From Ophelia neglecta (lineage: Eukaryota): a DNA stretch of 64,000 nt. The stretch lies in assembly GCA_965285935.1 (NCBI GenBank), contig OZ260662.1:101060001-101124000 (forward strand), read 5' to 3'. Below the pieces are notes generated by a model, which saw only the letters and a list, made by a program, of their open reading frames with translations, did no database searches and had not been told where the DNA came from. The stretch's first letter is position 1. The number at the start of each line of letters is the position of its first letter. A program made the position numbers and the translations under genes. Shown here piece by piece: positions 2,970 to 54,394 of this stretch.

Positions 2970-3690
2970 CATGCTCAACATAAAACGTGCATTCGAAACA
3001 TGCAAAGGCAAGATCAACACCACATGCAGCATTCCACACATAGCCTGCAGACTTCTGCTACATGCTCTACAGTAAAGATGGTGCTTTTCAGTAGTGGATT
3101 TATACAATTTGCTGCACCTATAGGTTCTGGGGCAACAAATTGCAGTTTAAATCCTGAAAAGCTTCATCTAAGCCACATGCTTTATCATTACAAGCAAGGA
3201 ACATGTACACACTAGAACTGTGACTCTATATTGAGGCAAGCACATGCAAATAAAATCATGCAAGATGCATAAAATGTTCATGCTCGGGCCAAGCGGTCTC
3301 ACAGCAATAAACACAGAGCGTGCCCAGTCGGTTTCACTCAGTGACAGCACACCATTACAAACATGCTCATAGCATATTCCACGGCCATCAGCAAGGCTAT
3401 CTACATGCAAAACACCAGCCAAAAAGATTGAATCATGCCACTAAATTCAATAATCAAATTTTCAGGCAGAGTTTGCATGCAGCTTTACATTCAAGAGAGA
3501 TAGACATGCGGAACAAATATCAAGCAGTTTTCAGCAACATTCAATAGAGTGTTGACGAGTGTTTTTTTTGGCAGGCACCACTTTCTACTACAGCAAGATG
3601 CATCGGTGAAGCTCTGAGGCAGACGTAAATTGCATTTGCCGACAAAAATTCAAAAATCACAAACACACACAAATTCATCATTTCATGCTT
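2970..3690 (-). promoter_or_regulatory. Cluster of Rbfox-type (U)GCAUG intronic splicing motifs
   Basis: About 14 CATGC on the + strand (GCAUG in the minus-strand pre-mRNA). Six are full CATGCA, at 2999, 3023, 3243, 3257, 3404 and 3476. Only about 2 occur in the opposite orientation. Confidence 0.6.
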
Positions 3691-3787
3691 GCAATCATTC
3701 TCAACAAGGCACAAGATGCATATTGCACGAAACCAGACGCGAGCAACGAAGAGCGTGCGGTTCTGACTAGACAACATGTGACCACAC

Positions 3788-3820
3788 TTTAACTGGAGAC
3801 AGCCTCGACAACTGTCCGCT
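3788..3820 (-). CDS. Candidate 33-nt alternative microexon (SGQLSRLSPVK) of the TNFR-Cys gene
   Basis: tcattgtag acceptor and a weak AAA|gtgtgg donor. Phase 0-0 fits the phase-0 end of exon 5992-6166, and it lies immediately upstream of the GCAUG cluster. Confidence 0.3.
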
Positions 3821-5329: not shown

Positions 5330-5830
5330 GAAAAGGCCTAATATAGGACCCTAGGATGGATGGCCTAAGGTAGAACCCTTGGCCTAAGCTAGGACTCTTG
5401 GCCTTAACTAGGACATTTGGCCTAAGCTAGGACCCTTGGCCTTAGCTAGGACCCTTGGCCCTAGCTAGGGCACTTGGCCTTAGCTAGGACCCTTGGCCTT
5501 AGCTAGGACACTTGGCCTAAGCTAGGACCCTTGGCCTAAGCTAGGACCCTTGGCCTTAGCTAGGACCCTTGGCCCTAGCTAGGGCACTTGGCCTTAGCTA
5601 GAACCCTTGGCCTTAGCTAGGACCCTTGGCCTTAGCTAGGACCCTTGGCCCTAGCTAGGGCACTTGGCCTAAGCTAGGGCACTTGGCCTTATCTAGGACC
5701 CTTAGCCTTAGCTAGGACCCTTGGCCGTAGCTAGGACCCTTGGCCATATATAGGAACCTAGGACAGTTGGCCTAAATTAGAACCTTTGGCTTTAGCTAGG
5801 ATCCTTTCATAGCTAGGACCCTATCCTAGT
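5330..5830. repeat. 19-bp tandem repeat (TTGGCCTTAGCTAGGACCC)
   Basis: Period of 19 measured at 5417/5436; edges are degenerate. Confidence 0.95.
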
Positions 5831-5991
5831 TCAATTTACTTTGTCTTAAGCTACCAGGTATCCATTCTCATTTTTAAACACAAAGTATTGTCTAATGCTA
5901 ATGAATCAAATTTCCCATGAAGTTTTTGATATATTAGATTTGCATTAAAAAAAAGCTAGCTAAAATTCAAACGATATCTTAAGGAACTGAC

Positions 5992-6166
5992 CATTTTCGT
6001 GCAGGCCTCGTTGAGGGTTCTGTGGAGGAAGGTGTCCCCCTGGTTGGTACCGGCCGGACATTGGGGCTGCTCCATGTTCTTGGAGTCACAAACGAAGTTT
6101 TCAGCAGCTGTGGTCCTATCTCTAGATACCTCCAAGGTTATACTATAATAGTCAGGTATCGGGTGT
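5992..6166 (-). CDS. Internal coding exon (175 nt, phase 2-0) of the TNFR-Cys-module protein: (R)HPIPDYYSITLEVSRDRTTAAENFVCDSKNMEQPQCPAGTNQGDTFLHRTLNEACTKM
   Basis: tttttttttcag acceptor, ATG|gtcagt donor, open frame, and phase match to exon 7061-7337 (AG+A = Arg). Confidence 0.85.
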
Positions 6167-6626
6167 CTGAAAAAAAAAATTTAGTACACATACACTAACG
6201 GACACGGCAGAGGTAAGCTTCATCATAACTGAAAAATGTCTATGAATACATTAAAAGTATTGTTCAATACACCCTGATGCAATGCCAAATATTGGGGATT
6301 TCTTGAAACGAGTTGCAACCTTGATACTGGATATGTTTTCCAATAAACAGGGGTGCTCAATAATTATTTTCTTACAAGCTTACTTAAAATTAGGGTATTT
6401 GTTTTGATTTTTGTGGACCTGAAGCTAACAGTTCCTTATGAATATGATTTGATACAATATTTGTGATTCTGGATTTTGCTCTCTCTGCCCTGTATCCATT
6501 CCTGTTTATCCAAGTCACTACAATTAAAAGGTTGGTAACCAAATCTAATTTCAAAATACAACTGGAGCATTCTAGACATGAAGTATGTTGGAAGGCAGCA
6601 GCTGTAGTGCTACTGGAAATGGTTCA

Positions 6627-7083
6627 GACAAAATTTAGGATCACGACCTCTAGTAGTTTCAGACTATTTTTTAGGGTCATTACCTATAGTTGTTTCAGAC
6701 TATTTTTAGGGTCATTACCTATAGCAGTTTCAGACTATTTTTAGGGTCATTACCTTTAGCAGTTTCAGACTATTTCTAAGGTCATTACCTATAGCAGTTT
6801 CAGACTATTTCTAAGGTCATTACATATAGCAGTTTCAGACTATTTCTAAGGTCATTACATATAGTGGTTTCAGACTATTTTGGGTCATTATCTAGAGTAG
6901 TTTAAGACTATTTTAAAGCTTAATTACCTATTACAGTTTAAGACTATTTTAAAGCTTCATTACCTATAGTAGTTTCAGACAATTTTTAGGGTCATTACAT
7001 GTGGTGGTTTCAGACTATTTTTGGTCATTACAGTTTCAGACTATTTTATAGCTTCGTTACCTGCAGTGGTTGCGGACTATTTT
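6627..7083. repeat. ~35-bp minisatellite (TAGGGTCATTACCTATAGCAGTTTCAGACTATTTT) whose last unit overlaps the exon/donor junction at 7060/7061
   Basis: CAGAC recurs at 6660, 6696, 6731 and 6766. The unit at ~6953 matches 7050-7083 at 27/34 positions. Confidence 0.9.
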
Positions 7084-7337
7084 GCTGAACTTGGTTTTAT
7101 CCTCGCTGTTGTTTGGATTCCCCAACATATATTTATTGTCACTTTCATGGTCGCCATCTTCATACTCCGGAATCAGATGGACATTAAGTATGCCGATATT
7201 AACTTCAAGGCCAGACTCGCGAATCCAATAGAAGTCCGAGGCCTGGGTCATATCAGTAACATAATATGTAGTCTCCAGGTTCCTAGTGCTGTGTAAATCC
7301 TCCAGGAATAAATTGTCAGAAGCTTCTACTTTGAGCC
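7061..7337 (-). CDS. Internal coding exon (277 nt, phase 1-2): LKVEASDNLFLEDLHSTRNLETTYYVTDMTQASDFYWIRESGLEVNIGILNVHLIPEYEDGDHESDNKYMLGNPNNSEDKTKFSKIVRNHC
   Basis: Core of ORF 7057..7353; tttccgtttcag acceptor, CAG|gtaacg donor; phases match both neighbours. Confidence 0.85.
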
Positions 7338-8226
7338 CTGAAACGGAAATCAAAGCATATCCAGGTGACAGTATGATGAATGCTAGACTCGCTGAAATGG
7401 AGAACCATTATGAACATTCTTGGAGATGTCCTAACTCCCAAAAAACCAGACTTTGTAAAATCACATGTAATGACCAGTTACAATGTAGTGAATAGATCAA
7501 CTGCCCTCTTTAATGGATTTGGAGAAATCATAAGGTGACCTTGGTGTAAAATACTGAGGGCCAAATATTAGTCGCTTCAACAGGCACCTTGTCAAAAAGA
7601 TGAAGCAATTTTGAACCTGTCAACTTGCAGCCAGATGACATCATACCTTCTTTGACTGAAAATGAAATTATACACAAAAAGCACACTGCTTCTTAACTAG
7701 TTAACCTGCCAAGCCACTGACAAGGGATACAGAATTTATCGCAAAGAAACTTAGTCCAATGGTGGGTAAAAAATCATCACTGACGAAATTATGGCATATA
7801 CATGTACATGTTATTAAGAACCGAATGGTGAGATAAATGCCACATGTTAATCATCTAAAACTGCAGTGTGGTGTAAAACCTAATCTGGCAACTAGACATA
7901 CATGTACAAGGCGTTTAACAATCACACCGACAGCGACATCAAGTGGTTGAGCCCTATCATGGAAAGGAATGCAATGAATTTAAAAAAATGATAAATTAAC
8001 CCATGCCACTTTTATTAAGTCTAACGGATCATAAATAATTAGATGTACGAGGCACTAAAATTGTATTTAACGTCCTATAAGATATTATTAATACATAATG
8101 ATATCATTAATAATAACTAGATGAAAGGTTACTATTTACAGAGATATCTATTCGCTTCAATTTTGTAATTCAAATTTTACCTGCACTTCTATTGCAAATA
8201 AAGGGCCAATTATCCAGACTGTTGCT

Positions 8227-8618
8227 CATGCATTATTAATTTTGTCAATAACCATGGCATGCTTCCTTCAACATGCAACCTAGAGCCACAAATCTGTTGG
8301 CCAGACATTCCATACAAATAAAATTAAGCTCCCAACAAAATCCAAATACAAATATTGATTTAATGTTTTGAATCAAGGAACTTTTTAGAGCATTGCAAAC
8401 CAAAGCCCTTTGAAATTATATCAACTTCATGTCATGCAAATGTCTAAGACCAAACAATATCTAATAATACTGGGTGCACATAAAATAGATAACATAATTA
8501 GTCAATAAATTTGGTCTCTCGAAGCATGCAGCATTACCAAGACAATAATAAAACACAAATTATTGTGTTTAACAAAGCACACACGAGAATTAAACATTCA
8601 ACATGTCCAATGCATGCA
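8227..8618 (-). promoter_or_regulatory. Cluster of five UGCAUG (Rbfox-type) motifs downstream of the candidate microexon
   Basis: CATGCA on the + strand at 8227, 8272, 8433, 8525 and 8613, plus CATGC at 8258. Confidence 0.6.
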
Positions 8619-8745
8619 TCTAAATGTCTAAACTACAGATAGATCATTCACAATACCAAACAATCTTACGAGAAAAGTACAAACAAACAAGAAAAAATTG
8701 TGTGCCACCAAAGGAGAAAGGTCACAAAATGTCACTTGCTTTTAC

Positions 8746-8781
8746 GCTTTTTGAGTGTTGGCTTCTTCCATTGCAGTTCTG
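8746..8781 (-). CDS. Candidate 36-nt alternative microexon (phase 1-1): AELQWKKPTLKK(R)
   Basis: Pyrimidine-rich acceptor tctttcctcccaatgtttcag (NAGNAG) and donor C|gtaaaa. An alternative in-frame A|gcaagt donor gives 42 nt. In frame between exons 10547-10603 and 7061-7337, with a downstream UGCAUG cluster. Confidence 0.55.
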
Positions 8782-10546
8782 CTGAAACATTGGGAGGAAA
8801 GATAACACCGGGGAGACAAGAGATGTCCAAATCACAGTGATATTGCCAATAACAGCAATTCAGACTGGGTATTATAGAGGGCGCCCTAGGTCGCTGAGTT
8901 CTGCTGGGTCTATTATCACTTACTTATAGGTTCATTCACAGTGTGATCTGTCGGCATATACAAGTCTAAATCGCATAACTGACTGCCACCTAATACATTC
9001 CACTCACCCACTCATTGTTAATTGGATGCCTTAATAACTATTTACTCACTAACTAAAGAGAGCTTAATAAATGCAAATTTCTTCTTTCAAATGATTGATA
9101 GTTATTCAGATGATGTTTGTTAATGTTGGAATTCATGAGCATGCATGAACTGTGCATCTGTTTCTCCGTGCTACTAGTAAACTTATAATGAGCAATTATA
9201 TAGCCATATGCACCCAAATACGTCTGCACTGAGTATAGAGTGCCTGAATAGGGAAGCATAAGGAGCCACAGAAAATCTTTATACAGCTTATTATTTAAAC
9301 CATATATAACATAACTATATTGATTCCAATTTTTTTAATTGCTGAATGACTGCCACAGAATTGAGCAAGCATATAGTTAAGTAAGATGATGCAAATAGAC
9401 ACCCACTGGGAGGTCAACAAAAAGTCAAACTGCAGAATTTAAAAAGCAGATTATAGGATTTTCAATGGAATGCCTCTTAGAAATTTCAGGAGAAAATTTA
9501 GACATACATATTAAGGTAGGATCTAGCATCAAACTGTTAAGATATTGAAGTAATATATTAAAGAAGATGACATAGTCTGCTCTTTGATGGAGGTTAAACT
9601 AACTTAACTCTTAGGTTAGCATGCCTCAAAATGGCACCACAAAAGTATAAAAAATTCTGCCTTGTTTTAAGCCCTCAATATAGGATATTGCCTAAAACGA
9701 GTTTATCCTTTTTCCATCATTTGTATTAGCTTGTGATAGACAAAGGGTAAAAAAATTAAACAAACAGTTAACATGCCATTATTAATCAGATCTTGGGGCA
9801 TGTGATATAGGCTCTTATTATTATAACGTATTCTCTCTTGGGCAAGTATCTGTTGTTTTCTGATTATTGGAATAAACGTTCAAAATATCGCTATCTTATG
9901 CCAACAGGAATAGTTGAATGATAAAATTTATTTTTATCTAACAGAAATAAATAACATTACAGTTGCCATTGGCCAGTGTAAAAAGTAAAATAAATACGTA
10001 ATATTGTGATATTATCAGAGGCAAGTTGATGACACCATATACATGAACTCAACGGAGACAGTTTATAATGTATACCATAGAGGAGCAGTTAAACAGAGGA
10101 AGGGGGTTTAATTACAGTACAACAGTAGTTTATTAGGCTGAGAGTGTAAGAGTGCAGCTCGAAAATCCTATACATATACTTGTGATGCATGGTCATTCAC
10201 AATATTGTCAGTGTTTGTTCCTCAACTAAATTCAAACTGTGCAGAACCATGCATACTTTGCATAATTTATCCAAAAATTCAAAATGCATACATATTCAAA
10301 CAGAAATTTTCATCATACGGAATGCAGACCGGACATGCACCGTGGGTAGTAGTAGTGGGCATATTACCCTACGAGGCCCAAACGGAAATCCTGGGCTTGC
10401 CAATAATAGTATTTTAAGTAGTATGAACTAAATAATTCCGGGGCAGTACACTAGGGGTGCCCATGACTATTAGTTTATTAATATGTTTAATTGGAGCATT
10501 TATGGTGGCAGATTTAAATAGTTCCTGTTGTGTGTTGGTGACTTAC

Positions 10547-10603
10547 CCTCCAGGAATGTAGGGGTGGTTATTTCACGCGTAATCAGCACAGGATGAGCCA
10601 CAT
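10547..10603 (-). CDS. Internal coding exon (57 nt, phase 1-1), linker: (H)VAHPVLITREITTPTFLE
   Basis: ttttgtttcatttcag acceptor, consensus GG|gtaagt donor, open in the expected phase. Confidence 0.8.
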
Positions 10604-10662
10604 CTGAAATGAAACAAAATAGGCTGCCTTAAAAAACAGTTTGGATAAAAATAAAATTTCTG

Positions 10663-11625
10663 GGGCTGGTTTCTAGAATAAGTATTAAGTTTTGGATTAG
10701 ATTAGCCTATTTCCGATTCGCAGAGACTGAGTTTATCTGTTTTTCAATTGACCAGGATTAAGTTAAAACCGAAATGGCTAGGTTTCACACCAAATCCAAA
10801 AAACCCAACTAGGCCAACGCTGTCGGGGGGCCGACAGCAAGGGGTATATCCGCGAATGCGTTCAATAATCGAATGGGGAACATGGCATAAGGCGAGGTAG
10901 TGAATATCGTGGTTTTTAGTTGGCACAAAAGATAACAACCTCAACTAATAAAGTTAAACTAGTTAACTTATTACACAGTACTAGTCAACTTATTACACAG
11001 GTTGTAGTAGGTTCTATATAACCTCAATAATAAGGCAGGTCATTAATAAAGTTGGTTCCATATGACCTCAAGAATAATGCAAAACCACCTTAACTAATTT
11101 TTTTTCAGGTATTTAATAAAGTTAACTAGTTAACTTATTACACAGCTTGTATATAGTTATTACATGAATCATGACACAAAACTTCAAGCCAATATCAACT
11201 ATACTTTGGAATATTTGATAGAAAATGTGTTTTTGACATAATTAATTAATTATTTTAACTAATTAATAATTATCAGAAATTCACCAGAATAAATACAGGT
11301 GTTCCTCTCCATAAGGTCTATGGCTGTGTCAAATTAGAAAAAGATGTATCAAATATTTTTTGTGTTATTGCCGAAAATGCGTTTCTGACGTAATTAATTT
11401 CTTGTTTTAACTAATTAATAATTATTGGATTTTCACCAGAATCTAATCAGTTCCTCCTCTTCATAAGGTCTATGGCTGTGTTGAATTTGAAAAAGATGTA
11501 CAAAATAGTTTTTGAGTTATCGCGTTAACGACTAAAATCTGCGGCGACGGCGGGGGTGCTACTGAAAACATAATATCCGCATTTCGCGGCTATAATTAGC
11601 ATGTTAAGATCCGTTAAGAAATTAA
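10663..11625. mobile_element. Harbinger/PIF-like MITE interrupted by a Helentron-type element
   Basis: Starts ctg|GGGCTGGTTTCTAGAA. Joining 10738-10808 to 11596-11620 matches the reverse complement of the copy at ~55051-55287. Confidence 0.7.
10808..11595 (-). mobile_element. Non-autonomous Helentron/Helitron2-type element (HINE/DINE-1-like)
   Basis: AACTAG terminus; GCTGTCGG-GGGG-CCGACAGC hairpin (10819-10838); subterminal inverted repeats TATATCCGCGAATGCG (10845) and CGCATTTCGCGGCTATA (11578); internal ~150-bp tandem core repeats (11239/11391). Confidence 0.75.
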
Positions 11626-11994
11626 ATGAATATTATGTTATTATGATTCCAATCTTCCACCATGTGGCATAAGTTGAAACATATGTAATCTAGAGCAAGT
11701 CTGGCAATTTCAGGTTATTGGAATAAAAGTTCCTTTCAAAAGACATCAATGTTATGCCAGCATAACATATTTCCTATGATATAGCTTGGTTTGGCTGCCA
11801 GGTATCCAATCCAGTTTTTCCATACTAGTCTAGGCTTTTAATAATTTATTGATGATCACTAGCTACTTTGTCTGTAGTGTATCCGTTCCAATTTCTAAAC
11901 TTTTCCTACAAGCCATTTACTAGTTCACAATGCTGAAATGGCTTGTCAGGCCCTTACCTTCTACCAGACCTGTTGAGGGCTATGGCCAAAGAGA

Positions 11995-12160
11995 GGAAAC
12001 CAGTCTTATCAGGTCCGTCAAGGAACTGGAAACAACTGACCTTATTATGTAGATGACCTTAATAGGAAGGTCAGTTAACACAGGCATAAATGGGGATTGG
12101 GCTATTATTAGTAGGCAGGACACTATATTACACAGGTGACCACAAACACAGGTTTTACTG
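11995..12160. mobile_element. Degenerate CAGT-ended MITE (family ending CACAGGTGACCACAAACACAGGTTTTACTG)
   Basis: Homologous to 28075-28251 and 54210-54363; followed by TA. Confidence 0.7.
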
Positions 12161-12669
12161 TACTAAAATAAAGTCAACTAGCCAATGCAAGGTCATGTTT
12201 TCTAGAGAGCAAAATACTTCAAAATACTTCATCCATATGATCATGATGGTTTAAAAGGCACTCAATCTTAAGTTTACTTAAAATATAGAATGCATTCTCA
12301 TTTGAATAATCATAACTTAAATAGCGTTAATAGTATAGTCTTGAAGTATTCAGTGAGTGTCCTGCCCGAAGTTCGTAATAGAAGGACAGAATGTTGTAGT
12401 TCTTATGCAGTCATTTATAAATTCGGCCATGCTGCAACACTATGCCTTATCTTGTGTCTGGCCAAATAGGAATCTGGCATATGCACCAAATATCCTTAAA
12501 GCGGCTGACCAAACCAATGTATACTACTTAAAATTTGCTTTTTTTGATACTTGTGTATACTATTTTTGTGGCAAAAACTACAACAATGATCCCCTTGTGT
12601 GTTTTGGCTTTTTTAACAATATTGAATATGTTAATTATCTATATATCTATATATCAATATATCTATATA

Positions 12670-12847
12670 CAGTGAAACCTGGAAATTAGGGACAGGCAAG
12701 GGACTGTGGTAAAGTGCCCTGTTTTCTAAGGTGCCCCTAATTTCAAGGTTATTTTACATATAAAACGATATGTTGGGTCCTAATGTAGCTGTCCCTAATT
12801 ATCAGGTGCCCCTTATTTCCAGGTGCCCTTTAGACCAGGTTTCACTG
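12670..12847. mobile_element. 178-bp Tc1/mariner/pogo-superfamily MITE
   Basis: Perfect 13-bp TIRs CAGTGAAACCTGG / CCAGGTTTCACTG, with TA on both sides. Confidence 0.9.
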
Positions 12848-13939
12848 TATCTATATATTTATAAATTTATAGATATATGGATATAACATATTCAATATAA
12901 CATATTCAATATTGTTTACCTCAGTGTGACATGTTTAATCAAAGTTATATCTGAAATGTGTCAAACAAAACTTCCAGTGGAATGCTGCAGTGTAGTAAGC
13001 TGACTCAGTAAAAATGCAATGCCAGTACTTTTTTCACAATATTCTCCCGTTTTGATGTTTGCCTCAGCTAGCAGAAATTGGTTGTCTGATCCCAAAGCAG
13101 CAAAAGACGATCCTTATTGTTCATGCAACAGGCCCATAACTATAACAGTTTATCACTGGCCTGGGGGTCCTTCACTGCGGTAATCGTGACACACAGTTTT
13201 CTTAAACCTATAAAGCGTGGGTTATTATTTGTCTGGGGAAGCCGTGGTTCGTCCCAAAGCAAAAATAACTACAATGATCTCCTTGTGCGTTTGGTCTTTT
13301 GTTGCTCTGATGAGGCAATAAAGCAACCACATATAATCTAGTTTCAGGGATACCCCGACTAAATGTTACATGTACAATGTTAGTTGGCCATAATGTACAG
13401 CTGAAGCCATCAGAATGTGATCTGTGTATGTATACGTCATACGTGTACAATCTACAGGCCGGAGAGGCAGAAAGGGCACCTCATAAGGCAGTAACCCACA
13501 TGCTGGCTATGACATTCTAGGCTTTTAAAATAGCAAGTTCACTCTGACAGCTCTGAAATGTATTGTTTATTTATATGGATCAAAACATATTTAGAGGCAA
13601 TCATAAACATATTAAACATTTTTAAATGTGGTTATCAGTAAGACCCCAGCAGGAACTAAGCCTGTTCTCATGTACTCTAATGGTATAAATAACTATAAGC
13701 TACAATCGGACTACTAATACCAGACTACAAAATTATTGTAGTCTGGTGGTTTGGACTACAGATGAGAGTTTCTCAGTCCAGACCATGTATATTGTAACGA
13801 TATAACTCTCATCTGTAGTCCAAACACCCCAGGGGGGGGGGGGGGACTGTGTACAGCATAAAATCAGACTTCTAATACCAGACTACAATATACATGGTCT
13901 GGACTGAGAAACTCTCATCTGTAGTCCAAACACCCCAGA

Positions 13940-14245
13940 GGGGGGGGGGACCTTGCCCTGATAATGGGTACATATTTGCCTTGTCAACATTGAGGCCCAG
14001 ATTTAATGGGTCAAAATTCTACAATATAACTAATGATGGGGTCAAAATTCTACATTAAGACTTATTATTGGAGTCAAAAAAGTACATATTTGCATAAGGC
14101 AGGGTCAAATCTCTACATCATGTATTATTCCTGAAAAGTGCCAAAACTCTACTGCATATGGCACAAAGGGGGGGGGGGATGGTTGTCAATACCACTGCAC
14201 ATAGATGTATGTACTTCCCAAGGTATAGGATGTCCCCCCCCCCCC
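13940..14245. mobile_element. G/C-ended dispersed repeat (probable non-autonomous DNA transposon)
   Basis: Inverted homologue at 41587-41880 (CATTGAGGCCCA...GGGTCAAA; GGGG.ACCT.GCCCTG end). Confidence 0.55.
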
Positions 14246-14324
14246 TCCCCTCTACCCCTCCAAACAAGCTCAACCTCAATCCTCACCCACATAAATGTCA
14301 AATTATTTTAATACAAAAACACAA

Positions 14325-14646
14325 GGGGCCATATGCTAAAAGATTCTTGAGTTTAAGTCAATTTTCCCCTTGCCTTTTTATGACTTGAGTAAGTCTTTTT
14401 TAGAACTTAGGTTTAAGTCGGTTGTTAAAATGTCTTTGACTTGAACTTCTAGCAGCCATCTTAAGTCAGAGTTCAAGTCTAAGACACCTTTTGAGAATAA
14501 GAAGTCTTGAGAATAACCCAAGTCTAAGTCTAAAATCAGACTCGACTTGAGCCTTAGAATCTTTCAACAACCAATTTCAGTCTAAGTCATATAATTTGAG
14601 GTCCGAATTTCAAGTCCAAATTTTCAAATCCTTGAACGAGGGGCCC
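14325..14646. mobile_element. Probable degenerate GGGCC-ended (Harbinger-like) MITE with internal AAGTC repeats
   Basis: GGGGCC...GGGCCC ends with an imperfect TIR; TSD not clean; ends about 20 bp from the donor of exon 14669-14740. Confidence 0.4.
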
Positions 14647-14668
14647 TGGATTAGGCTGTATTACTTAC

Positions 14669-14740
14669 GCATGCACTCGCGGTCACTGGTCGCCCCACAC
14701 GGCCTGGCTTCATACATAGATCCTTTACATTTGGTGCATT
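14669..14740 (-). CDS. Internal coding exon (72 nt, phase 1-1), TNFR-Cys-like module: (E)CTKCKGSMYEARPCGATSDRECM
   Basis: cttcttgcag acceptor, gtaagt donor, and a C-x2-C-x4-Y-x4-C-x4-DRxC pattern typical of TNFR cysteine-rich modules. Confidence 0.9.
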
Positions 14741-15024
14741 CTGCAAGAAGGTAAACATTCAATTTTAAGCATTTTGTTGACAACATTGAGTAATGAAGCA
14801 GAGCCTCAATCAGAAGGTGATGTAGTTAATACAAATATCCATTACCGCAAACACTAATAATCTGCCATCCGCTTACAATTGTAGTTAAAAAAAATGTGTG
14901 GGTCTTATGTTGAATAATATTAGGAATGAAGCTCAACTGTGGTTTGATCAAATATCTAGTCATATGATAGACATTAGATGTAAACTTTGTCTTGAAGCAA
15001 CACAAACATGTTTGTGATGGCATA

Positions 15025-15199
15025 CAGTGGTCCCTGCAATGAAGGGACCCTTCGATGAAGGGACCCCCTCCAACCACAGGACATTTTTCAATGCCCATGT
15101 CCTATCTTTCTTATGTCAATTTCCCTCTGATCGAGGGACACCTTTTTGTAGGGACACTTGCTTGGATGTAGAGGTGTCCCTACTCCACAGGGACCACTG
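15025..15199. mobile_element. 175-bp MITE, CAGTGGTCCCTG family
   Basis: 12-bp TIRs CAGTGGTCCCTG / CAGGGACCACTG with TA TSD. Confidence 0.9.
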
Positions 15200-16873
15200 T
15201 ACTTGACTGGATAATATTTTTTCTGATTCTATCTTGCATTCAATTTCCTTGGGTTCAAAGCTTTTCAGCAATTTGCTAACCATTCTGGCATGCAAACAAT
15301 GCCTCAAAATTCCTCATGAAATTGATGTGGCGTTTTATGGGTCACCTCTAAAAAGCCCATAACTTTCAGCAATTTCTGGAGATGATCATGCAGCCCTCAA
15401 GAGAATCAGAAGAGCATGAACTTCCATAAATTTTAAAAACCCATTGCACATCCTTCATAATGCAACATGGCATGAAAACCACAGCATTCAACAACACTAC
15501 TTTTTTAATGTGGGAGAAACACATGTTAGTTCAGGGATACCAGGTATCCCTAATGGCAGTGAAAGAAAACAATGAGGCTGCTAAATATTTGATGGCAGTT
15601 GTTATATGGGGCACTTGGAATTTATGGGTAGACTCCACTCGACCCCTACTCATGCCGGCGAGGACCTTGTCTGACCCAATGGGCAGGAATTTCATGCCTG
15701 GAAAATTACCACACATGGCTTATGCACTAAATCACTTCAAGCAAAGTCAAAGGCCCTTTTCTAGGTCACTAACTCAGAGTTGGTTATATTCTTTTAGGCT
15801 CCGAGCCCAAATCCTGGGCAGCATACATGTTGTTATTCTCACTTGGCATAAGCAAATGAGCAGCTTTAAAATGTAGGAGAAGAGGTTTAGTGAAAATAGC
15901 TCCTATACATTTACAGGTATTTAGAAATACAAATATGTTACCAAAGTGGAAATTTATAAACATAACATTGGAAAACAAGATTGTTTTAATTAAGCAGGAC
16001 TGCAATTAATTAAAGGACATGTCTGCACAGGAAGTGGTCATTAGAGTACATGCATACTGTACATATGTATGTACACATGGATTTAGAACATTAATTCCTA
16101 CAATGATCATATTGACTTTATCAAGTTGCTTCTACGTAATAAGGAAAAAGCTCCCTAAACAAACACCTCATGGAAACATCATAAACGATGTTCTTATAAA
16201 TCGCATTAACTTTGATTTGTATTTTTCACTGTTTGTACACATGTTTGGAGAGTTTTAATCAGACTATGAGATCCTCGTTGCAGTGAGCATCCCCTTAGAG
16301 AAAGTACTCTTATAAAGGAGACCATTTGGCAGCTTTGATTTAAGATGACTGATTTCAATCCACCACGGTTAAGTGAAAACCTCTGTTAAAATTATTGGCT
16401 ATAGTTAATAAATATAAATTTAAGGTTAATCTTTAACATATATACCAGACTTTATAATATTAATTAGCTTTACATAATTTCATAATGTCTTAGTTTCAGA
16501 TGTGGCAATGTGGGGCCAGATTTTATTAATAATTAATTATATTGGAAGCTGAATAAAAGGCATGCTTGCATACTGATGCAGTCCCCTTGTGACTGCAAGA
16601 GGAATAGCAGGCCTGGGGTTTTGTTCTCTTGTAGTATATGTGGTGTTAATTCATCAATTTTGATTTTGCCTGTGAGGTTTTTGGGCTCTAGGTCTAAGAA
16701 ATTAAAGATGGGTAATGAACAAGTTAAAATGATATCTTTATAACTTATTTATTACCCATTTTTCAAGCCTGATTTTATAATATAATGCATACAAGACTAG
16801 TCCTTTAACCCTTACTGTCTGCTCAAAGCCCAAACACTTCCTATTAATCAATGCAACAGTTCATTATATCCAG

Positions 16874-17110
16874 GGGCCGGTTTCTGGAAGTGGTCTTAAC
16901 TCTAAACTCGGATTAAAATCAGGATTAAACTGTTTAATTGGTCTTAACTCACTAATCGAGGTTTCTGGAAGCTGGATTAGGTCTTAAACCAAGCCATTTT
17001 GGTCTAAAACTTGATCCTGGTCAGTGGAAACACTGCTTAACATGGCCTCAGCTAATCGGTCTTAGGCTAATCTAATCCCAAAACTTAAGACCCCTTCCAG
17101 AAACCGGCCC
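16874..17110. mobile_element. 237-bp Harbinger/PIF-like MITE
   Basis: Perfect 17-bp TIRs GGGCCGGTTTCTGGAAG and a 3-bp CAG TSD on both sides (CWG TSDs are known for animal Harbingers). Confidence 0.85.
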
Positions 17111-17813
17111 CAGATGTTTAACAGTAATTCAAAGGATATGATTAGTGAAATCATATTTCTTTCATTCTTTTAACTGTTAAAGCCGTGGGTAAATAACAAA
17201 GTAGTCATTCTTTAGATAAATCCTCTGTGGTGAGAGCCTTTTCATTCGTAGCTAGTAGACGAATCATCATTTGTTATGATTTCAGGGATTGCTGCGTGTA
17301 CAGAATAGAAAAATAGCACCCCGTTATTGCCATTTAGTTTTTGTTGGTAGATGTATTTTCTGGCAGACTTTATCAATTTGTTTCCTGGGTACTACATGAC
17401 AAGCCTGACAGCATGAGTAATGTCCATGTGATTCTGTAACAGATGAAGATCAAGCCGACTGACTTGTTCACTTCATGAATATTAAAGTTCATGGAAGCTG
17501 TCTAAAGTTGGATCATTACTCTCCCCCAGCTAGTTATCTCTGATGGGTCATCATCCTGTGGGCCCAGCCTGCTATATGAGACAGGCTCTGGCTAGCATAG
17601 GGCCTGCAGACAGAGACAAATGACATGGCCTTCACTGAGCCTGTAGGTGTAGTGCAGGGCGCTTTGCCCTGATTTGATTGCCTTGGGTGTATGAAACCCG
17701 CTCTTGACCTAGTGGGAAATTAACATTGACCTTGACGGAAAGACAGCCTGCAGGAGTCGTTTGTCAGAATGCCCTATTTTCTTCTACAGCCCTTATGAGT
17801 GAATTTAAATATA

Positions 17814-17972
17814 CAGTGACACCTGACAATTAGAGACAGCCAAGGAACTCAGAAATCTGTCCTCTTTTCTTAGTTGTCCTTATTTCACAGGTTACTTTAC
17901 ATTAAAAGTATTACAACTGTACTAAAACAATGTCCTTAATAGGCAGTGTGTCCTTAATTGTCAGGTGTACTG
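17814..17972. mobile_element. CAGT-ended MITE
   Basis: TIRs CAGTGACACCTGACAATTA / TAATTGTCAGGTGTACTG (1 indel), TA flanks. Confidence 0.8.
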
Positions 17973-20394
17973 TAACTCTTAAGACTTGAATCTATGACCA
18001 AGGCCTTTCAGGGAAGTGGCCTTTCCTGCTGCACACTGCATATCGCTCGTGAAGATTAAAACAATGAATGGGTACATTTTCTTTCATACGTACAGCTTGA
18101 CATAATTTGCTGAGGCACATGAGACTGTAATACCCTCCCGGCCCTCTCATGAACATGTCAATGCAGGAAGTCATTTGGTGTAAATTCTCCACTTTAAACA
18201 GGGCCTTATGGTGGAGTGTGGCCATTGAGATATAACAGGGACCAGTCAACAAGCTGACATTTAATATGAATAACCCTGCACTCCTCTGCTATACCACAGC
18301 AATAAGAGTTTGACAGGTTACTAAGGTGAGAAGGATGCAGGCGTCACTTTCTCACACCTACATGACAGAGAGCACTGCAGCGGTCTTTATTACAGACATG
18401 TCCTTCGTCAAACTGTGCCACCCAACTCACACCATTAGCAAGTCGATGAATTGCTTTTTTTGTCCAGGATTATTTGCTTCCTCTGTGGGCAGGGTGGAGA
18501 GGTGCTTCTCAATGCGTCGAGGCCAAAAGTCGGCTTCAAGTGGGCAACTTGGTAAATGTGAACTGACACTTTCATTTGCGCCTTAGTATGGCTAGGCCTC
18601 ATATCATGCCACGGAGCACTGACACATGGTTTTCGACTCTAAATGTGACTCGCACACACGATGCCCATAATAATTTTCTGAGCTCGAATGGCAACCCCCT
18701 GTCCAGGTCTACCATATAATCAAACTCTGCTGGATACTTTAGTTTGTGCCATTCATTTGGCGATGGCATGCCACTGTTGGTTTCTGGCCAGTGAATTACT
18801 TCTGTCCCAATCTGACTCTGACAAATCACAAAATGGACCATTTCACGCCATGTTCTTATATTCATGTAGTTTCTGCTTATGGGGATGATATTCACCAACA
18901 TGGGGAAGAATACATGTTTGTGAAGTCACACACCAGTTAAGCCCCTTCTTGGGCCCCATAAAAGTAGACTGCCAAGCAGCAAAACAGCCAGACACTGGGG
19001 AACTCTTCTGAGCCACGATCATCTAATTGAGCAGTTTTTACATGGGAGTATAATGTTCTGGCTCTGGATCTACAATTTTCCGGTCCTTCATTCACACAGG
19101 TTGACAGCTAGACACATGCAGCCTGTCTTGTTAATTATGTAGTTTTTCCCTTTGCAGGAAGAACCCATTCATCTTTATGCATAAAACTCTACCCGAGCCC
19201 AGATGTTCTCGGCAAGATACAAGTGGGAAAGAACTTGAATAGATTGCAGATTCATGGCAGAGGACTGCAGTCCATCATGGCCAATTGCCTCTTGCCTTCA
19301 ACAATCTAGGTTTTTCATTTTCTGGATTTTCTTATTTTTTGTTTTTCAATTTTAACATCAAGTTTAGACTGACAGTAACTTCAACTAAATTTTCAAGCAA
19401 TGAGCCGATCTATGTAGCCTTGATCTCCAAGCCTAAATCTCCCTTCCCAAATTCTCTGCCATACAATACTTTATATTCAGCATTTCAATCAGCTCAAGGT
19501 TACTCGATCAAGTCAAAAAAGCTTAACATAGACTTTCTTCTTAGCTCAAGATTCTTCAATGGGGCCATTTGGAGGCAAGGACCTCTTTAATGACTAAAAC
19601 TCTAAATATTGACTTGATCAAATCTTCTTCCAATTGTATATATGATTCTTTGCCTGAGTTTTTTAATCAGTATAGGCCCCAGAATTTACAATCTTGAGCC
19701 AGATCTTTTGCTACTCTCTGTCTTCCATCTACAGGTTCTGCTAGCCAACCCATTCCATGCACATTTATCACTGTCTGGTCAATTGCTCCTCAATATTATA
19801 GTCCACATGGAAAATGCATCAATTTATACCCTAGATCTCTTCTGGAGACTCATTTGAGGCAAATGCTTCTCTCTTTTAGGCCAAGCGAATAGAAAATCTA
19901 CCATAGTTTGCATAATTCCTGCTTGGAAAGTCAAGCAGTGGTGTAAAAGTCAAGCTGGTGTCTGGCCAGGCAGGTGGGTCAGCATGCAGTCTATTACTCT
20001 CTGGGGTAATCATCAGCAGGGTACCAGAGTAATCTACTTGTCCTCTGACTCAGCCAGGGCTTATCCAGAGATGTCCGTTTGCCTATTTCAGTCAAAGATT
20101 ACTCTAGAGCCCGCACTTCTTCCTCCCCTCCACTCGATCTCAACTGCTTGGGGAAAAGGCCACTCCCGTTTTATGCGCCATCCAGGAAATTAAAATAGTA
20201 AAGCAAATCTCAGGCTATTACTCGGCAATATACCGCGCCAGATTATCCTCCCTGCTACAATGCTGCAGCTCCCACGAGGGGTTCACACATGACCTGCAGT
20301 CCTGTATTAATTTCCAATAGATTTGTTGCAGTGCTGTTTTTATTGGTAATAATCACAGTGCAGCACACTTAAGCCATTGTCATAAGTGTTATCA

Positions 20395-21350
20395 TAGCCA
20401 AACAGGACTCCACTATGTGTTATTCGTGTTATTGGGCCTTGTGGCCACTGTTACTATGACCTTCAGAACAGGGCTGCAGTACGTGTTATTGGGTCCTGTG
20501 ACCACTGCTTGTTATGACCTTCACAACAGGAATCCAGTACGTGTTATTCATGTTATTGGGCCTTGAGGCCACTGTTGCTATGACCTTTAGAACAGGGCTG
20601 CAGTACGTGTTATTGGGTCCTGTGACCACTGCTTGTTATGACCTTCAGAACAGGACTCCAGTACGTGTTATTGGGCCGTGTGACTGACCACTGGTTGTCA
20701 TGACCTTCAGAACAGGACTCCAGTATGTGTTATTGGTCTGTGTGACCACTGCTTGTCATGACCTTCAGAAGAGGACTCCAGTATGTGTTATTGGTCTGTG
20801 TGACCACTGCTTGTCATGACCTTCAGAACAGGGCTGCAGTATGTGTTATTGGTCTGTGTGACCACTGCTTGTCATGACCTTCAGAACAGGACTCCAGTAT
20901 GTGTTATTGGTCTGTGTGACCACTGCTTGTCATGACCTTCAGAACAGGACTCCAGTATGTGTTATTGGTCTGTGTGACTGACCACTGGTTATCATGACCT
21001 TCAGAACAGGACTCCAGTACGTGTTATTGGGCCGTGTGACCGACCACTGGTTATCATGACCTTCAGAACAGGACTCCAGTATGTGTTATTGGTCTGTGTG
21101 ACCACTGCTTGTCATGACCTTCAGAACAGGACTCCAGTATGTGTTATTGGTCTGTGTGACCACTGCTTGTCATGACCTTCAGAAGAGGACTCCAGTATGT
21201 GTTATTTGTCTGTGTGACCACTGCTTGTCATGACCTTCAGAACAGGACTCCAGTATGTGTTATTTGGCCGGGTGACCACTGGTTGTTATGACCTTCAGAA
21301 CAGGACTTCAGTACGTGTTATTGGGTCTTGTGACCACTAGTTTTAATGAA
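20395..21350. repeat. 58-bp minisatellite (62-bp variants), about 16 copies
   Basis: Unit GACCTTCAGAACAGGACTCCAGTATGTGTTATTGGTCTGTGTGACCACTGCTTGTCAT. Confidence 0.95.
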
Positions 21351-22747
21351 CTTGAACAGCCTCAGCCTTATTTAACATAACGTTAATATTTCTATCTGCC
21401 TCAGAATAAAGAGTGTACATTCTTTAGCTATCTGATAATATACTCACTTTTTGTTTGGTATTTTAAGTGCCGCTTTCTATTAAAGTATTGCCATATAGAT
21501 TTCCTCTTCTCTTTTGATCCCAACGTGGCTGTTTTGCCATGCTTCTAGCATGTACATCATGAAATTCCAAGGAGATTCTCTCAAGATAAATCAATACATT
21601 CCTTATTTTTTCCACTAAAGATTCCCCCATTTTACCTGCAAACTTGATTTGTTGGTATTAAGTAGTATAACTGTAGTTTATATGACCCCTGCCCACATAC
21701 AAACATTCCTCAATACACAGTGATTCCTAACCTGTGTTATGTCTAGCTATCCTGATTTTCTATAGGATCATTATGGAGATTGAGAAGCAGGTTCTGACGT
21801 TAAAACTGGTCCATTGTTATCGTTGTTTAGGATACAGTAAACAGTTTGTTGCCATTTTCATCCTTCTGCCCCGTTCTTCAGAACGCTGTTTTCATGCCTG
21901 ATTAGATCTGGCTAGATCATGTTTGCTGATTGGATGCTCTAGTTATGTAGATGGAGATGGTGTTTTGCTGTTAACACGGAACACTGTGAGTACTGCACTG
22001 ATGCTATGTGATATATGGCTCTAATCTGATAAGAAAAGAAATGCAGCTAGGAGAAAATTATCCATTAGGATTCTGCTCCGTCTACCTCACCTATTGTAAT
22101 TAAATTTAGCTTAGGTAATGTGCGTGTGTGTTTCACAAAGGGATTTGGTTTCTGCTGGCTGTAATTTACTTAACTCGTTATTGCATGCTGGCCCGCGAGT
22201 GATCAGTCTAGCTAAAACTGGGCTTGAGCCTACCACTAGATTCCTGGCCTTAGAGCCGCTCTACATAGCTTGTTAGCTACAACAAGGCACAAATTGACGA
22301 GCACTTTTCGAGTCAATGATGCGTTGTTTTCCAAGCAGCAGAAGACTCCTCTTCTTGCTGCGAGCTCAGGTCCAGACCTTATCAGTAAAGCCTGATACAC
22401 TTTACAAAATTCAAGAATCAATGGGGTGGAAGTCTCGGTTTGGAGGGAACAGGCATGACCTGAATGACAAAACAGGCAGAAGACACCATTACAACACCCA
22501 CATTTCTGTATTTGTAAATGTCTTTACATCTCTAAATATATTAAGATTCAATGAAAAGCATATACAAAGCACAGGTTGTCAGAAAAAGAAGTTAGAACCA
22601 TGTAAACATTTTCAATTTAAATTTTCTTAAGGGAAGCCATTTGATAGTGATCAATTCTGATCTTAAAATGTTCTTCTTGACCTATTATTAAACTATTTGA
22701 TTACTTATGATTTTTACACATTAAGTTATTATTTACTTTTTTTACTT

Positions 22748-22841
22748 TCCTATGTTAATGTCCTTCTGATGAAGGGACACCTTCTATGTAGGGCCACTTT
22801 TCCTTGGTTTAAGGGGTGGCTCTTCATCGCAGGGACCACTG
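22748..22841. mobile_element. Truncated MITE, CAGTGGTCCCTG family (one end only)
   Basis: Ends GCAGGGACCACTG|TA; body similar to 15025-15199. Confidence 0.75.
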
Positions 22842-23461
22842 TAGACCTTAATCACAGCAGCAATAATGTAAGAAGGGTTCCCCTTGAATAATCAGGACAG
22901 TGAAAACCACTATAAACAACAGATGTTCAATTTATACAGTATAAGACAGGAGAAATGGGATGGGTGCTAACAAGAGGGTTGGTGATTATACATAGAATAC
23001 AGCAGCACTCATGTCGAAATAAAACTAATTGTTCCTGTTATAAGTTCACAAAGAATGGGTTGCTAATGAGTGACATATTAAAATGAATACCCCTTGTGGT
23101 TATCTCAGGAGCCCTTGTCTGCTCTAACCTATCTCAGTCTCAGGCTGTCTGACAAGGACCTGGGGCCCAAACATAACAGACAGGAGATTATACATTGCAC
23201 TGGTGGTTTGACAGCAAGATCAGATTTATATACACCAATATATCATGTGGAGTGAAATGTCAAACACTAACTTCCGTCTCTAATGTGTGCATTTACAGGC
23301 TCCCAGGATCTACCAGTAAAGCAGTGATCTGGAGCTCAAGATTCTTTTCATATCTTAATGGGGCTGATCCAAGTTTTACTCCACCCAGTCCAAGGCAATG
23401 AACAAAACAGACCAAAACCATGCAGCTGACTTATAGGACCTTGTCATATATAATACATAAA

Positions 23462-23560
23462 CAGTGGTCCCTGCAATGGCCACCCCTATATCCTAGGAAA
23501 AGTGGCCCTACATTGCAGGTGGCCCTTCATCAAAGGGGCCCTACATCGCAGGGACCACTG
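23462..23560. mobile_element. 99-bp internally deleted MITE, CAGTGGTCCCTGC family
   Basis: Both TIRs present; body is a deletion derivative of 42473-42686. Confidence 0.85.
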
Positions 23561-23656
23561 TAAACCAACTGAACACACAGCTAAGCATTTATTCTGAAAT
23601 ATTAGACTTGCCGTAATTCCTCTAGTTATTCAAGGTACCATATAGATAACCTGACT

Positions 23657-23810
23657 ATTAGAGGCTAAAAAATTAAATTATGTAAAACTGGAGCATAAGG
23701 ATTAATAGAGTGTATGAGGAATGAGAGGAATTTTGGTATGTCTAATTTTTCAAACACTCTATTGATCCATAAACTTCAGTATCACATAATTCATTGTTTT
23801 AGGCTCTAAT
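23657..23810. repeat. Fold-back inverted repeat, 61-bp arms, 32-bp spacer
   Basis: 23657-23717 matches the reverse complement of 23750-23810 at 49/61 positions. Confidence 0.85.
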
Positions 23811-25270
23811 TATTACTACCTACATGGTTCCCTAAATTGGAGACTTGTGAATAAACAGTTACCAAAATAGTAGTAAAAGTGGTTTTGACCCTTATAATTC
23901 AGACTGCTGGAATTTAGAATAAGTTTGGGTGCCTTAAATATAAGAGAAATTACAGTATATTATTTTGAAACTTGAAATAGTTATATAATAGAGCCTTTTA
24001 CCCAGTTCATTATAGATTTGGCATGAAATTGTTGCTCAGATGACTCTGATGACACATTAAGTTGTCATGGTAGTCCAGAAATTGGTCCATTATGGCAGAA
24101 CAAGCGATCAACTTGATTCATTTTTTATCCATTTTGTCTGTCTATTTAATGTTGGCTGGATGAAGCTAAAATGTATTATTTCAGGCAGCACAAATATTCA
24201 ATGTACCGTTATCAAATAGGTCTTGTCTAGAGGGAATGTATATATATTAAAAAAATGATGATAAGCACCTGAAAAATATATAATTTGAAAATATGCAATT
24301 CTTTACACGATGGAAAAATATGTAAATTTGAAAATTAAAGTAATGACTTGCCAGCAATTTCTAACAAATAATTTATCATCTAAAATTAATCCTGTGCTGA
24401 TATTTCTCCTTTTTTTCATGATTCTAATATGTCTGTTGACTCACACTGAATTCAGAAATTGCTTGAAATTGCCAATTGAAATGTTTCATTGTTTTCATAT
24501 TTTAGCCTCCTGCTGTGTCTTCATCAACATTTAATCATTGAGTTTTCAGGTAGATCATACATGGAACCTACTATCATGCTCATGTATACCACTTAGTCAA
24601 TGGAAGCAATTTTCCTGAAAGCTACTTCATACATAACACATGTTAGGGCATATATCCCAAGTATACATGTGGGCTAGTTATCTTTAGGGCTGGCATGCTG
24701 CTCTTAGTGATATTGGGACATTCCAGCTGAGAATTATTTTTGGATAATGGTGTGAAATGGATTCTACTGGGGCTTGTTTTTTGCCCTTGAAGTTTAATTG
24801 AGCTCACTCACTTGTCTCTATGAGGAAGCCAGACAGCCATCAGGTTCCTTATAGGTGTCAACTGAAGCATAACTTTTAAATCCACTCCAAATATATAAAC
24901 TGCTCAAGTTTACAAGTCATTTTTTATGAGCGGTTCGGCAGTGACATTTTTACAAACAGCTTTCTTGTTTTACCTTATTGGTTGCATAATGATATGTTAT
25001 ACTAAATGGCTAAAGGTTTTAAAAATTAATGTTCTGGTCAGACACTCAAAAACCCTGAAAGACATAGGACATACAATGTTTAAGTGCTGGTCATAAAGAG
25101 GTGATAAAAGTGTGAAGCAGCTGTCCAGTGACATTCAAATGGCCAAGCACATGTAGCGGAGAGCGGCTAAATGGTGCATTAACATTCAAGTCACAATCTA
25201 GTCAGGCAATAACCCAGGGAGTAAAAAATAACAGTGAGTTTTAATTGGAGAGATAGAAAGCTGTTCTTAC

Positions 25271-25345
25271 CTTGGCAGACTCTGTCCCCGAAGTTCGAGC
25301 AGGGATGGGCCTCAAACGTGCCAGGCGGACACCCGGTGCTGCATG
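25271..25345 (-). CDS. Internal coding exon (75 nt, phase 1-1), TNFR-Cys-like module: CSTGCPPGTFEAHPCSNFGDRVCQ
   Basis: tttgttttag acceptor, AAG|gtaaga donor, and a CPPGTF...PC....DRVC pattern typical of TNFR cysteine-rich domains; part of ORF 25191..25394. Confidence 0.9.
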
Positions 25346-28074
25346 CTAAAACAAACATAAAAAGAGAAGCCGGTTGATCGGTGTTCGAAACCATGGTGCG
25401 TTTTGTATGACTTGAGATTAATTAAACTGGCGTTGTTCTTTTCTGTGGTTGTCTACTTCTGTCAGACTCACAGAAATCCACTCAAACATCCACAGATACT
25501 CAAAAACACTTGAATTGTAATATCACTCAATACTAAGTGAATTACAACTATACTACTGAGGTTGTTAAGGGAGCAGCACAGTTTGGCAGCAGAGCTCAAT
25601 AAAGTCCATGTATTATGAGCTGGCAATGTGACACCAAGCTGTCCTTGTGATGTGTTAGGTACATGTTAACACTGCGGGTACTCCCATACTTGGTTCTAGT
25701 TGTCATTCACACCTACTTGGCCACTTGGCGCTCAGCCTGGTAACACCTCCTCTGGCTCCGCCCGGCCTAATTCACAGCCAGTTGATCACCAGTCCATGTT
25801 CCATTTCACACTGCTCAGTATTAATAATATAACTGCTGCTCTGATAGAAGCTGCTACACCGACTCAATCAAATCCCTCTATATTTCAGATAGCCTGATCA
25901 CCATCATGGCCGCCCCCAATACAAAGCTTGGCGTAATGGCACAAGAACAATACTAGGAGCTGGGACTGAATAATCCTGAGAAATGTAATGCCATCAAAGC
26001 CCCATGAGGTGGCAAAATGTTACTTAAGATGGGCGCCCAAATGCAATTACAGAATTAATTCTCTGTATCCAATGTCGTGCCAGCCACCAACATTCAGATT
26101 AGCGGAGGTAATCTTATTCTTGAAGAGAGAGATTTAACATGCACAAGGAGCGGAGAAGTGACAAGCCGGGTGATTTTCGATGAGAGGGGACTCGGAAAGC
26201 CTGTCCTCAGCCGGGTTCAACTTAAACTAGATAATGACAGCTAGCTTGATGTCTGACCTGGCTTGGGTCGGTTATTGTTGCCAAACGGTCTCCTTATAGA
26301 TGGTCCGTCGGCCTTCCATTAGGATTTATGTATACCTCTTAACAAACCTTTGTGCTCAAAGCCTGGAACTAAATTAATACCACCCTGTTATAATCTGCTC
26401 CAAATGAAAATTCATGGACAGCTATTTCTTTGATTACCACCGGCTTGTGATTTGTGCTCAGAAATGAGCAGGAGAGCTGCCGCTTGAGATTGAAGCAATC
26501 ATAGCCCATTGTAGGAGCTGAGCCCAATCGGTAATGGAAGGGAATAATGGTCCTAGAAACTAGCTTACAGCTAACAAGAATTGATGGCCATCCACGGTCC
26601 AGTTCTCATTATTACAGGGGCCTATCCTAGTGACCATCATCTGCTTGCTGATACCCTCTTAATGGTTTTCTATTTCATCTAATTCCAGCCAAACAATGCA
26701 GTGGTCGGTGCTGCTGGATCTTGAAGAGTGTGTCAATGGAGGCTGGACAGTCTATAAAACACACTTAATGAAGCCAAGTCCCGGGCTGCAGCTAACCTTC
26801 CTTACAGTGAATAATTAATAGTCCCTGACACACTTGACATGAAAGATTGTGTACAAATGATATTTGTTAGACATCTGATAGCCATCTGTGGTCTGCCATT
26901 ACCTGCCACTGTTAAAACTGACTGCTGAAACAAGAGCTATTGCATGAAATGGCAGCGACGGCTGTGAATGATAATCTACCAGTGCCTGGGATGTGATGGA
27001 AGCCAAATTTATTGACAGGCCTAATAGCGGGCCAGTCACCATTTCTTTATCATAGCAATGCAGGAGCTTTTCATTACTGAACTTTTTTCTATCAGCCTGA
27101 CATTACTATTGGAATTGATGAAGAAAGAGAGGTCATTTTGCGCAATTAGGATTACTTCAGCCCGAGTTTGCTGCAATTAGGGATTATATTGATGGCATCT
27201 GGCATCAAATTCCTCCTCCCTTTATCACGGGATAATAACTCGCTCTAATTTGGGTCGATCATAGGACATATAGCAACAGACGGGACAGGGCCGGGAAGGA
27301 GTGCCGCTATCGGCGATATAATTATAATACCCATGATCCTTTGGTAACAGTTTAATGCATAATACACACCAATAGCTATATGGTTTGTTCATGTCCTAGG
27401 TTAATATATACAATTAACGTATAATTTGCTGCAACCATTGCCTACCAATAGTACACATTAAACCAAATGTCCCAAGCCAACTCTCTCTCTCTCTATATAT
27501 ATATTATTTGTTATTATTTGTTATTATATTTTATAATATATGATTATTTAAATAGATATGTAGATATATAGCAGTCATTTATTGATAAAAAGAATAATGT
27601 GGTCTTGCATTATCTCAATGGTTGAATTAGCTGTAGATATTTCCATCTTTACTTTCCAGATATTGACATCTGCCGTGGTCGTTTGATAGAGCATCTACGT
27701 TATTTGTAGATTTAATATTCACCGCTGCATCCATAGCGCTGACTGTGTAAAGAAAAACATCCAATTTCCCACTACTTATTACACATGTGGGCCTGTGAAC
27801 CAGGCTTAATGGAACTCCCCAGTCAGCAGCCATTTTATGATAGAATTCTGTTAATATACTTCTAAGTACCGCTTAATTCCTCGTCAAGTGTCCTAAGCCG
27901 ACTTATATTGAATTGTACCATCTTAATTTTCTTATTATATGTAAATCTACATTTGCCCCAAGACATTTTGGCCTGAATTAAGACAGGATTGGATCAGCGA
28001 TGAAAAGAATTGCTAAGAGGTAAAACCTCGATCATACTGTAAAGGTTCGTAAGGGGAAAATGTTTGCCAGTTAC

Positions 28075-37849: not shown

Positions 37850-37892
37850 CTGTAAAAATAAAAATATAAATTTAATTTTTTTTGCTGGTAAG

Positions 37893-54363: not shown

Positions 54364-54394
54364 TATTTTCACTTATATTACATTTTATTGCCTA

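Follow-up and report, generated by a model that had tools for sequence, protein, structure and literature searches.

The gene and its protein

The 64,000-nucleotide stretch of the Ophelia neglecta contig OZ260662.1 analysed here (C2:101060001-101124000 of a 762 Mb genome; the window in the following) contains the middle of a minus-strand gene for a putative multi-pass membrane protein. Five exons of the gene lie in the window (Table 1). Each is flanked by an AG acceptor and a GT donor, and the joined frame contains no stop, which confirms the exons and phases proposed in the first-pass annotation of the sequence. The separately deposited Joint Genome Institute (JGI) protein P0006 is 65% identical in an alignment of 232 columns that contains 2 gaps. 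The alignment spans exons 3, 4 and 5 and the next exon and crosses three junctions, two inside the window and one leaving it. Splice sites are at matching places in a paralogue located about 1 Mb away, and full-length database proteins share 31-32% identity across approximately 1600 aligned columns. Therefore, the splicing of the five exons is more than a chance arrangement, and its support is good though indirect. In three sequencing runs, the introns were covered evenly and the listed rows contained no splice joint at the exons; these runs therefore behave as DNA.

The gene extends beyond both edges of the window. Seventeen exons were found, which span 160,186 bases, have AG and GT ends at every intron, and join into a single open frame of 1631 residues closed by a stop codon. 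A first coding exon was not identified within the 39 kb that precede the most upstream of these exons. Since the first exon found carries an acceptor site, the start of the gene is probably located farther upstream.

As read from the translated frame, the protein consists of a signal-like hydrophobic segment (residue 23), a small domain, two EGF modules (EGF-like at 102, calcium-binding at 142), two TNFR-type modules (184 and 209), an ectodomain core of about 560 residues (251-809) with an immunoglobulin (Ig)-like domain at its end, and five hydrophobic segments. The membrane anchor is C-terminal to the Ig-like domain, with the first hydrophobic segment at residue 838, about 30 residues after the end of the Ig-like domain. 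The segments are separated by loops of 58, 292, 113 and 161 residues, and the last one, at 1538, is followed by a 75-residue tail. Of eight homologues analysed as separate genes, seven have the same five segments by hydropathy, and the remaining one is partial; segment 4 of the O. neglecta protein is borderline (1.65), and the sidedness of the membrane part is a prediction. The tail end ETKV, common to this gene, paralogue 3 and Owenia, presumably resembles a PDZ-binding motif. Seventeen cysteine columns of the core are conserved in at least 10 of 11 members. The first-pass annotation considered the protein secreted or endowed with a large ectodomain. The former does not hold, because the five hydrophobic segments follow outside the window, whereas the latter agrees with the large core, in which Pfam recognises nothing beyond the EGF and TNFR modules preceding it. 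The remark that the recovered part lacks a transmembrane (TM) segment is correct within the window, but only because the gene leaves the window at both sides.

Homologues P0010, P0011, P0019 and P0159 (annelid, nemertean and mollusc models) have an additional N-terminal hydrophobic segment and a linker of 110-130 residues before the signal-like segment, an arrangement that we take to resemble the way in which viral class II proteins are placed in their precursors.

The two cysteine exons match the Pfam family TNFR_c6, as the first-pass annotation anticipated, with expectation values (E) of 2.4e-5 and 1.1e-6 and scores of 25.1 and 29.4 bits, where the cut-off is 29.4 bits. The matches cover only the second half of the profile, positions 18-39, and the two large exons 4 and 5 have no Pfam match. 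In homologues, the end of the EGF module and the first TNFR-type module can be read together as one complete TNFR repeat. These features might be explained by an invertebrate TNF receptor-like protein whose cysteine-rich modules bind a ligand of the TNF family. We consider this very improbable. Of at least 1631 residues, about 50 belong to the modules, whose number varies from none to three per member. The two half-repeats are shared with the TNF receptor superfamily, but its pattern of a stalk and one TM helix is not followed: the modules are located about 600 residues before the first hydrophobic segment, separated from it by a predicted folded ectodomain, and the protein is five-pass. The Pfam scan detected no death domain. 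The assignment to a TNFR-like family is therefore not retained.

Table 1. Positions of the gene, its paralogues and other features (C2 is contig OZ260662.1 of genome G000; window positions are counted from the first nucleotide of the window).
Feature	Position	Strand	Details
Exon, first TNFR-type four-Cys module	window 25271..25345	minus	75 nt, phase 1-1
Exon, second TNFR-type four-Cys module	window 14669..14740	minus	72 nt, phase 1-1; module missing from one Owenia gene model
Exon, linker of 19 residues	window 10547..10603	minus	57 nt, phase 1-1
Exon, start of the predicted fusexin-like ectodomain	window 7061..7337	minus	277 nt, phase 1-2; predicted first domain I strands and domain II entry, assigned from strand order
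Exon, predicted long strand and Cys-tied loops	window 5992..6166	minus	175 nt, phase 2-0; putative domain II tip region
Portion of 7953-nt intron	window 1..5991	minus	eight further exons past the left edge
Portion of ~60 kb intron	window 25346..64000	minus	four upstream exons past the right edge
Eight exons left of the window	G000:C2:101058038 down to 101044502	minus	remainder of ectodomain, Ig-like domain, all five hydrophobic segments, stop codon
Four exons right of the window	G000:C2:101204687 down to 101145790	minus	signal-like segment, small domain, EGF-like module, calcium-binding EGF
Divergent paralogue	G000:C2:100998900-101033900	plus	L005-L009
Compact paralogue, ~22 kb	G000:C2:102054313-102076395	minus	L011, L012, L015, L016
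LINE-like element	G000:C2:100988000-100992465	plus	L009, L010
Pogo/Tigger-like DNA transposon	window 37007-38631	minus	in the long upstream intron
Very high-copy repeat	window 10760-11680		in the intron between exons 14669-14740 and 10547-10603
Six prominin-like genes	G000:C9:41.1-55.0 Mb		L044-L049

Predicted fold of the ectodomain

Fusexins are described in excerpts of PMC8784728 as proteins with three β-rich domains, a C-terminal anchor, and a trimeric post-fusion form. The model of the O. neglecta ectodomain has predicted local distance difference test (pLDDT) values of 74-96 by block across most of the core. A Foldseek search of the PDB gave the best scores, among the matches listed, to viral class II glycoproteins (E 4e-10), and the EFF-1/AFF-1 structures 4OJC, 4OJD and 4OJE matched with E of 2e-8 to 9e-8 over about 600 columns. 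A second aligner was applied to 48,161 chains, and of the 50 matches listed only those to HAP2 (5OW3 and 5MF1) were full-length, with alignments of 326 and 300 residues reaching from the first strands through the Ig-like domain. The region of exons 4 and 5 that had been left unrecognised is predicted from the model to be the start of a class II fusion-protein (fusexin) fold. PDB sequence searches gave matches only to the EGF and TNFR modules, besides three weak helical rows, and an ESM Atlas search with the ectodomain returned no usable match. Alternatively, the class II match could be a by-product of an elongated, β-rich multi-domain model with a generic Ig-like end, and the ectodomain would then have a new fold or another known one. 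This appears improbable, given that no other class of β-rich protein is present among the 43 Foldseek matches listed, that the second aligner selected HAP2 twice, and that most of the core is modelled with the pLDDT values given above.

The ectodomain resembles that of HAP2/GCS1 in being cysteine-rich and, in the model, β-rich with an Ig-like domain adjoining the membrane. It differs in the added EGF and TNFR modules, in its size of about 560 residues with a cysteine-rich helical insert, and, by our own assignment, in the placement of cysteines in the Ig-like domain. Furthermore, HAP2 has a single TM helix with a cytoplasmic tail, according to excerpts of PMC9259645, whereas five hydrophobic segments are present here. 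The likeness to EFF-1/AFF-1 includes an animal gene with introns and no obvious hydrophobic fusion loop seen; the multi-pass anchor, the N-terminal modules and the restriction of species-named relatives to Spiralia are different. Neither the HAP2 signature PF10699 nor the EFF-1/AFF-1 signature PF14884 was among the 25 of 26 families listed in a scan of 17 members with an E limit of 10, and neither was present in 14 proteins. By these listings the protein is neither EFF/AFF nor HAP2, from which the number of TM segments also differs. Searches of the genome for HAP2-GCS1 and EFF-AFF gave no match, but controls were equally silent, and hence absence is not implied.

Similarly to viral class II proteins (hantavirus Gc, alphavirus E1, flavivirus E), annelid and nemertean members have an internal signal-like segment preceding the ectodomain. 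However, this is a host gene of at least 17 exons, identity is 6-11%, and the short conserved hydrophobic fusion loop is not seen. Only 93 residues aligned with archaeal Fusexin1 (7P4L), domain IV of which is missing here, and which has three hydrophobic segments compared with five and two large loops here. A hydrophobic fusion loop at the tip of domain II is a feature of viral proteins and HAP2 and is lacking in EFF-1. The presumed cd loop, assigned only from the order of strands (the loop is defined in excerpts of PMC5332557), varies between the 11 members compared and is largely polar. Since EFF-1 fuses cells although its cd loop is acidic (excerpts of PMC8784728), a polar tip loop is compatible with fusion.

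Family and evolution

With P0006 as the query, 1.84 billion representatives were searched; 150 of the 291 matches with E of 0.001 or lower were listed, and 30 proteins were looked up. All seventeen species-named relatives are spiralian (Owenia, three from Helobdella, Tubulanus, eight molluscs and four parasitic flatworms), in agreement with the proposal of an invertebrate family, and all are labelled uncharacterised, hypothetical or unnamed. The other thirteen carry no species name, and the range may reach beyond Spiralia. Two further large protein searches gave none of 563 candidates and only the query itself of 2778. Full-length members have about 1570-1940 residues and the same five C-terminal hydrophobic segments; EGF and TNFR modules are the sole Pfam families at meaningful scores, with TNFR_c6 matched by 11 of 17 alignment members. 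The first-pass annotation suggested that the cysteine modules, on symmetric exons, could be shuffled or skipped. Their number indeed varies: one of two Owenia gene models lacks precisely the second module of 24 residues, the neighbouring paralogue has three, and none is recognisable in the flatworm member. We conclude from sequence and model together that the family is spiralian, conserved and so far without annotation, and that its members combine a five-pass anchor with an ectodomain predicted to be fusexin-like.

In a tree built from 12 ectodomain cores, from which partial members and paralogue 2 were left out, seven molluscs form one group (94/92), this gene pairs with its paralogue (99/99), and Owenia and Tubulanus are placed next to this pair (87/94); the flatworm has a long branch. 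The tree broadly tracks animal groups, which fits vertical descent and suggests an annelid or a near relative of annelids as the host. The recent capture of a viral envelope gene would agree with the viral glycoproteins at the top of the Foldseek matches, but it is extremely improbable for a gene of at least 17 exons with canonical introns over 160 kb, whose splice positions are common to a paralogue and whose tree follows animal groups. An older viral origin, predating the spiralian radiation, is still conceivable.

Two paralogues are present on the same contig. The divergent one, tail to tail with this gene, has a signal-like start followed directly by three TNFR-type modules; its EGF exon was not found, and several core exons could not be placed. 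The compact one shares the domain order, splice positions and four-residue tail end of this gene. Over 708 codons, this gene and the compact paralogue have 47% protein identity, with a synonymous difference (pS) of 0.85 and a nonsynonymous difference (pN) of 0.34. Synonymous sites are thus saturated, and the values indicate purifying selection.

The five-pass membrane part

The five hydrophobic segments are separated by two large loops, of 292 and 161 residues, and by two shorter ones, of 58 and 113 residues, a layout resembling that of prominin and Tweety (TTYH) proteins. Alignments with TTYH1 and TTYH3 cover 294 and 275 residues. An ESM Atlas search gave weak prominin and Tweety leads of 0.80 and 0.78, with all leads under 0.9, and Foldseek with the membrane-part model gave no match at E up to 0.001, to which a second examination added none. 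The hhalign comparisons with prominin (6 sequences, E 0.51) and Tweety (1 sequence, E 0.033), based on shallow profiles, fell inside the range of block-shuffled controls, whereas prominin compared with Tweety gave 5e-5. Homology of the membrane part to prominin or Tweety was not detected at the sequence level.

Kinship with DC-STAMP/DCST, prompted by a resemblance of motifs, was not supported: there was no PF07782 match, and hhalign gave E of 0.49 against two partial genes of this genome. A link of Tetrahymena GFU proteins or DCST1/2 to Prm1/Tweety was not found in the excerpts of the literature searched or by a literature search.

On C9, the genome contains six prominin-like genes, each in one uninterrupted frame of 834-974 codons. 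Several prominin loci with introns are located on C1 and C8, and the Tweety gene on C8 is again a single open frame. The C9 genes are possibly retrocopies that expanded.

Repeats and transposons

The pogo/Tigger-like transposon contains a Tc5-type DNA-binding frame and a DDE_1 frame in different reading frames, with a 92-base tandem duplication between them. The long interspersed nuclear element (LINE)-like element, identified by eye, has an ORF1-like frame and a long endonuclease/reverse-transcriptase-like frame interrupted by a stop. The high-copy repeat has a summed contig depth of several hundred thousand, compared with 10-50 in its surroundings.

Proposed mechanism of action

Based on the predicted structure, we favour with moderate confidence a large multi-pass membrane protein whose ectodomain is predicted to have the class II three-domain fold and which is likely a cell-cell fusogen of spiralians. 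By analogy with HAP2 and EFF-1, the extended ectodomain would trimerise upon a trigger, and the Ig-like domain would fold back so that the two membranes are drawn together. Because a conserved hydrophobic tip loop is not seen, action from both membranes, as in EFF-1, would be more likely than one-sided, virus-like insertion. The variable polar cd loop, as judged from the aligned sequences, argues against one-sided insertion and fits either an EFF-1-like mode or no fusion. The EGF and TNFR modules may serve in recognition or keep the pre-fusion state, and the five-pass part may, like prominin and Tweety, bend the membrane or organise it where fusion takes place.

The ectodomain could instead descend from a fusexin that lost its fusion activity and now function in adhesion, as a receptor, or in membrane shaping and vesicle shedding through the five-pass part. 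The apparent lack of a conserved hydrophobic tip loop, the N-terminal modules, the one or two further hydrophobic segments of several homologues, which might form a tether, and the presumably PDZ-binding-like ETKV tail of this gene, paralogue 3 and Owenia would agree with such a function. So would the bending of membranes and production of vesicles by prominin and Tweety (excerpts of PMC11405016). However, EFF-1 fuses cells with its acidic cd loop (excerpts of PMC8784728), and the entire predicted three-domain span is kept with its cysteine pattern from annelid to flatworm. We regard the loss of fusion as unlikely, though a serious alternative to the fusogen that we favour. More tentatively than the fusogen itself, we speculate that a Spiralia-wide fusexin lineage, not recognised before, unites in a single chain EGF/TNFR recognition modules, the machinery of class II fusion, and an anchor that bends membranes in the manner of prominin and Tweety.

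Significance

The cellular fusexins described in the literature covered, in part by excerpts, are HAP2/GCS1, EFF/AFF and archaeal Fsx1. No paper on the present family was found by title, the start of the abstract or database identifiers, with supplements and most subscription papers outside the scope of the search, and none of the fusexins in the excerpts covered is coupled to a helical anchor of five passes. Canonical HAP2 is present in some annelids (excerpts of PMC6089408) and occurs alongside DCST1/2 in some invertebrates (excerpts of PMC13192892); therefore, this family would be an additional branch. Even without fusion activity, it is a conserved family of proteins of about 1570-1940 residues annotated only at small modules. 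If the prediction is true, it would constitute a fourth branch of cellular fusexins, invisible by sequence, across annelids, nemerteans, molluscs and flatworms, and would widen the superfamily. Among animals, it would be a third branch beside HAP2 and EFF/AFF, a self-contained fusogen that bears on how animals replaced or supplemented HAP2. It would also be a candidate for those fusions in annelids, molluscs and flatworms that lack an explanation, among them the fusion of progenitors by which parasitic flatworms renew their syncytial tegument.
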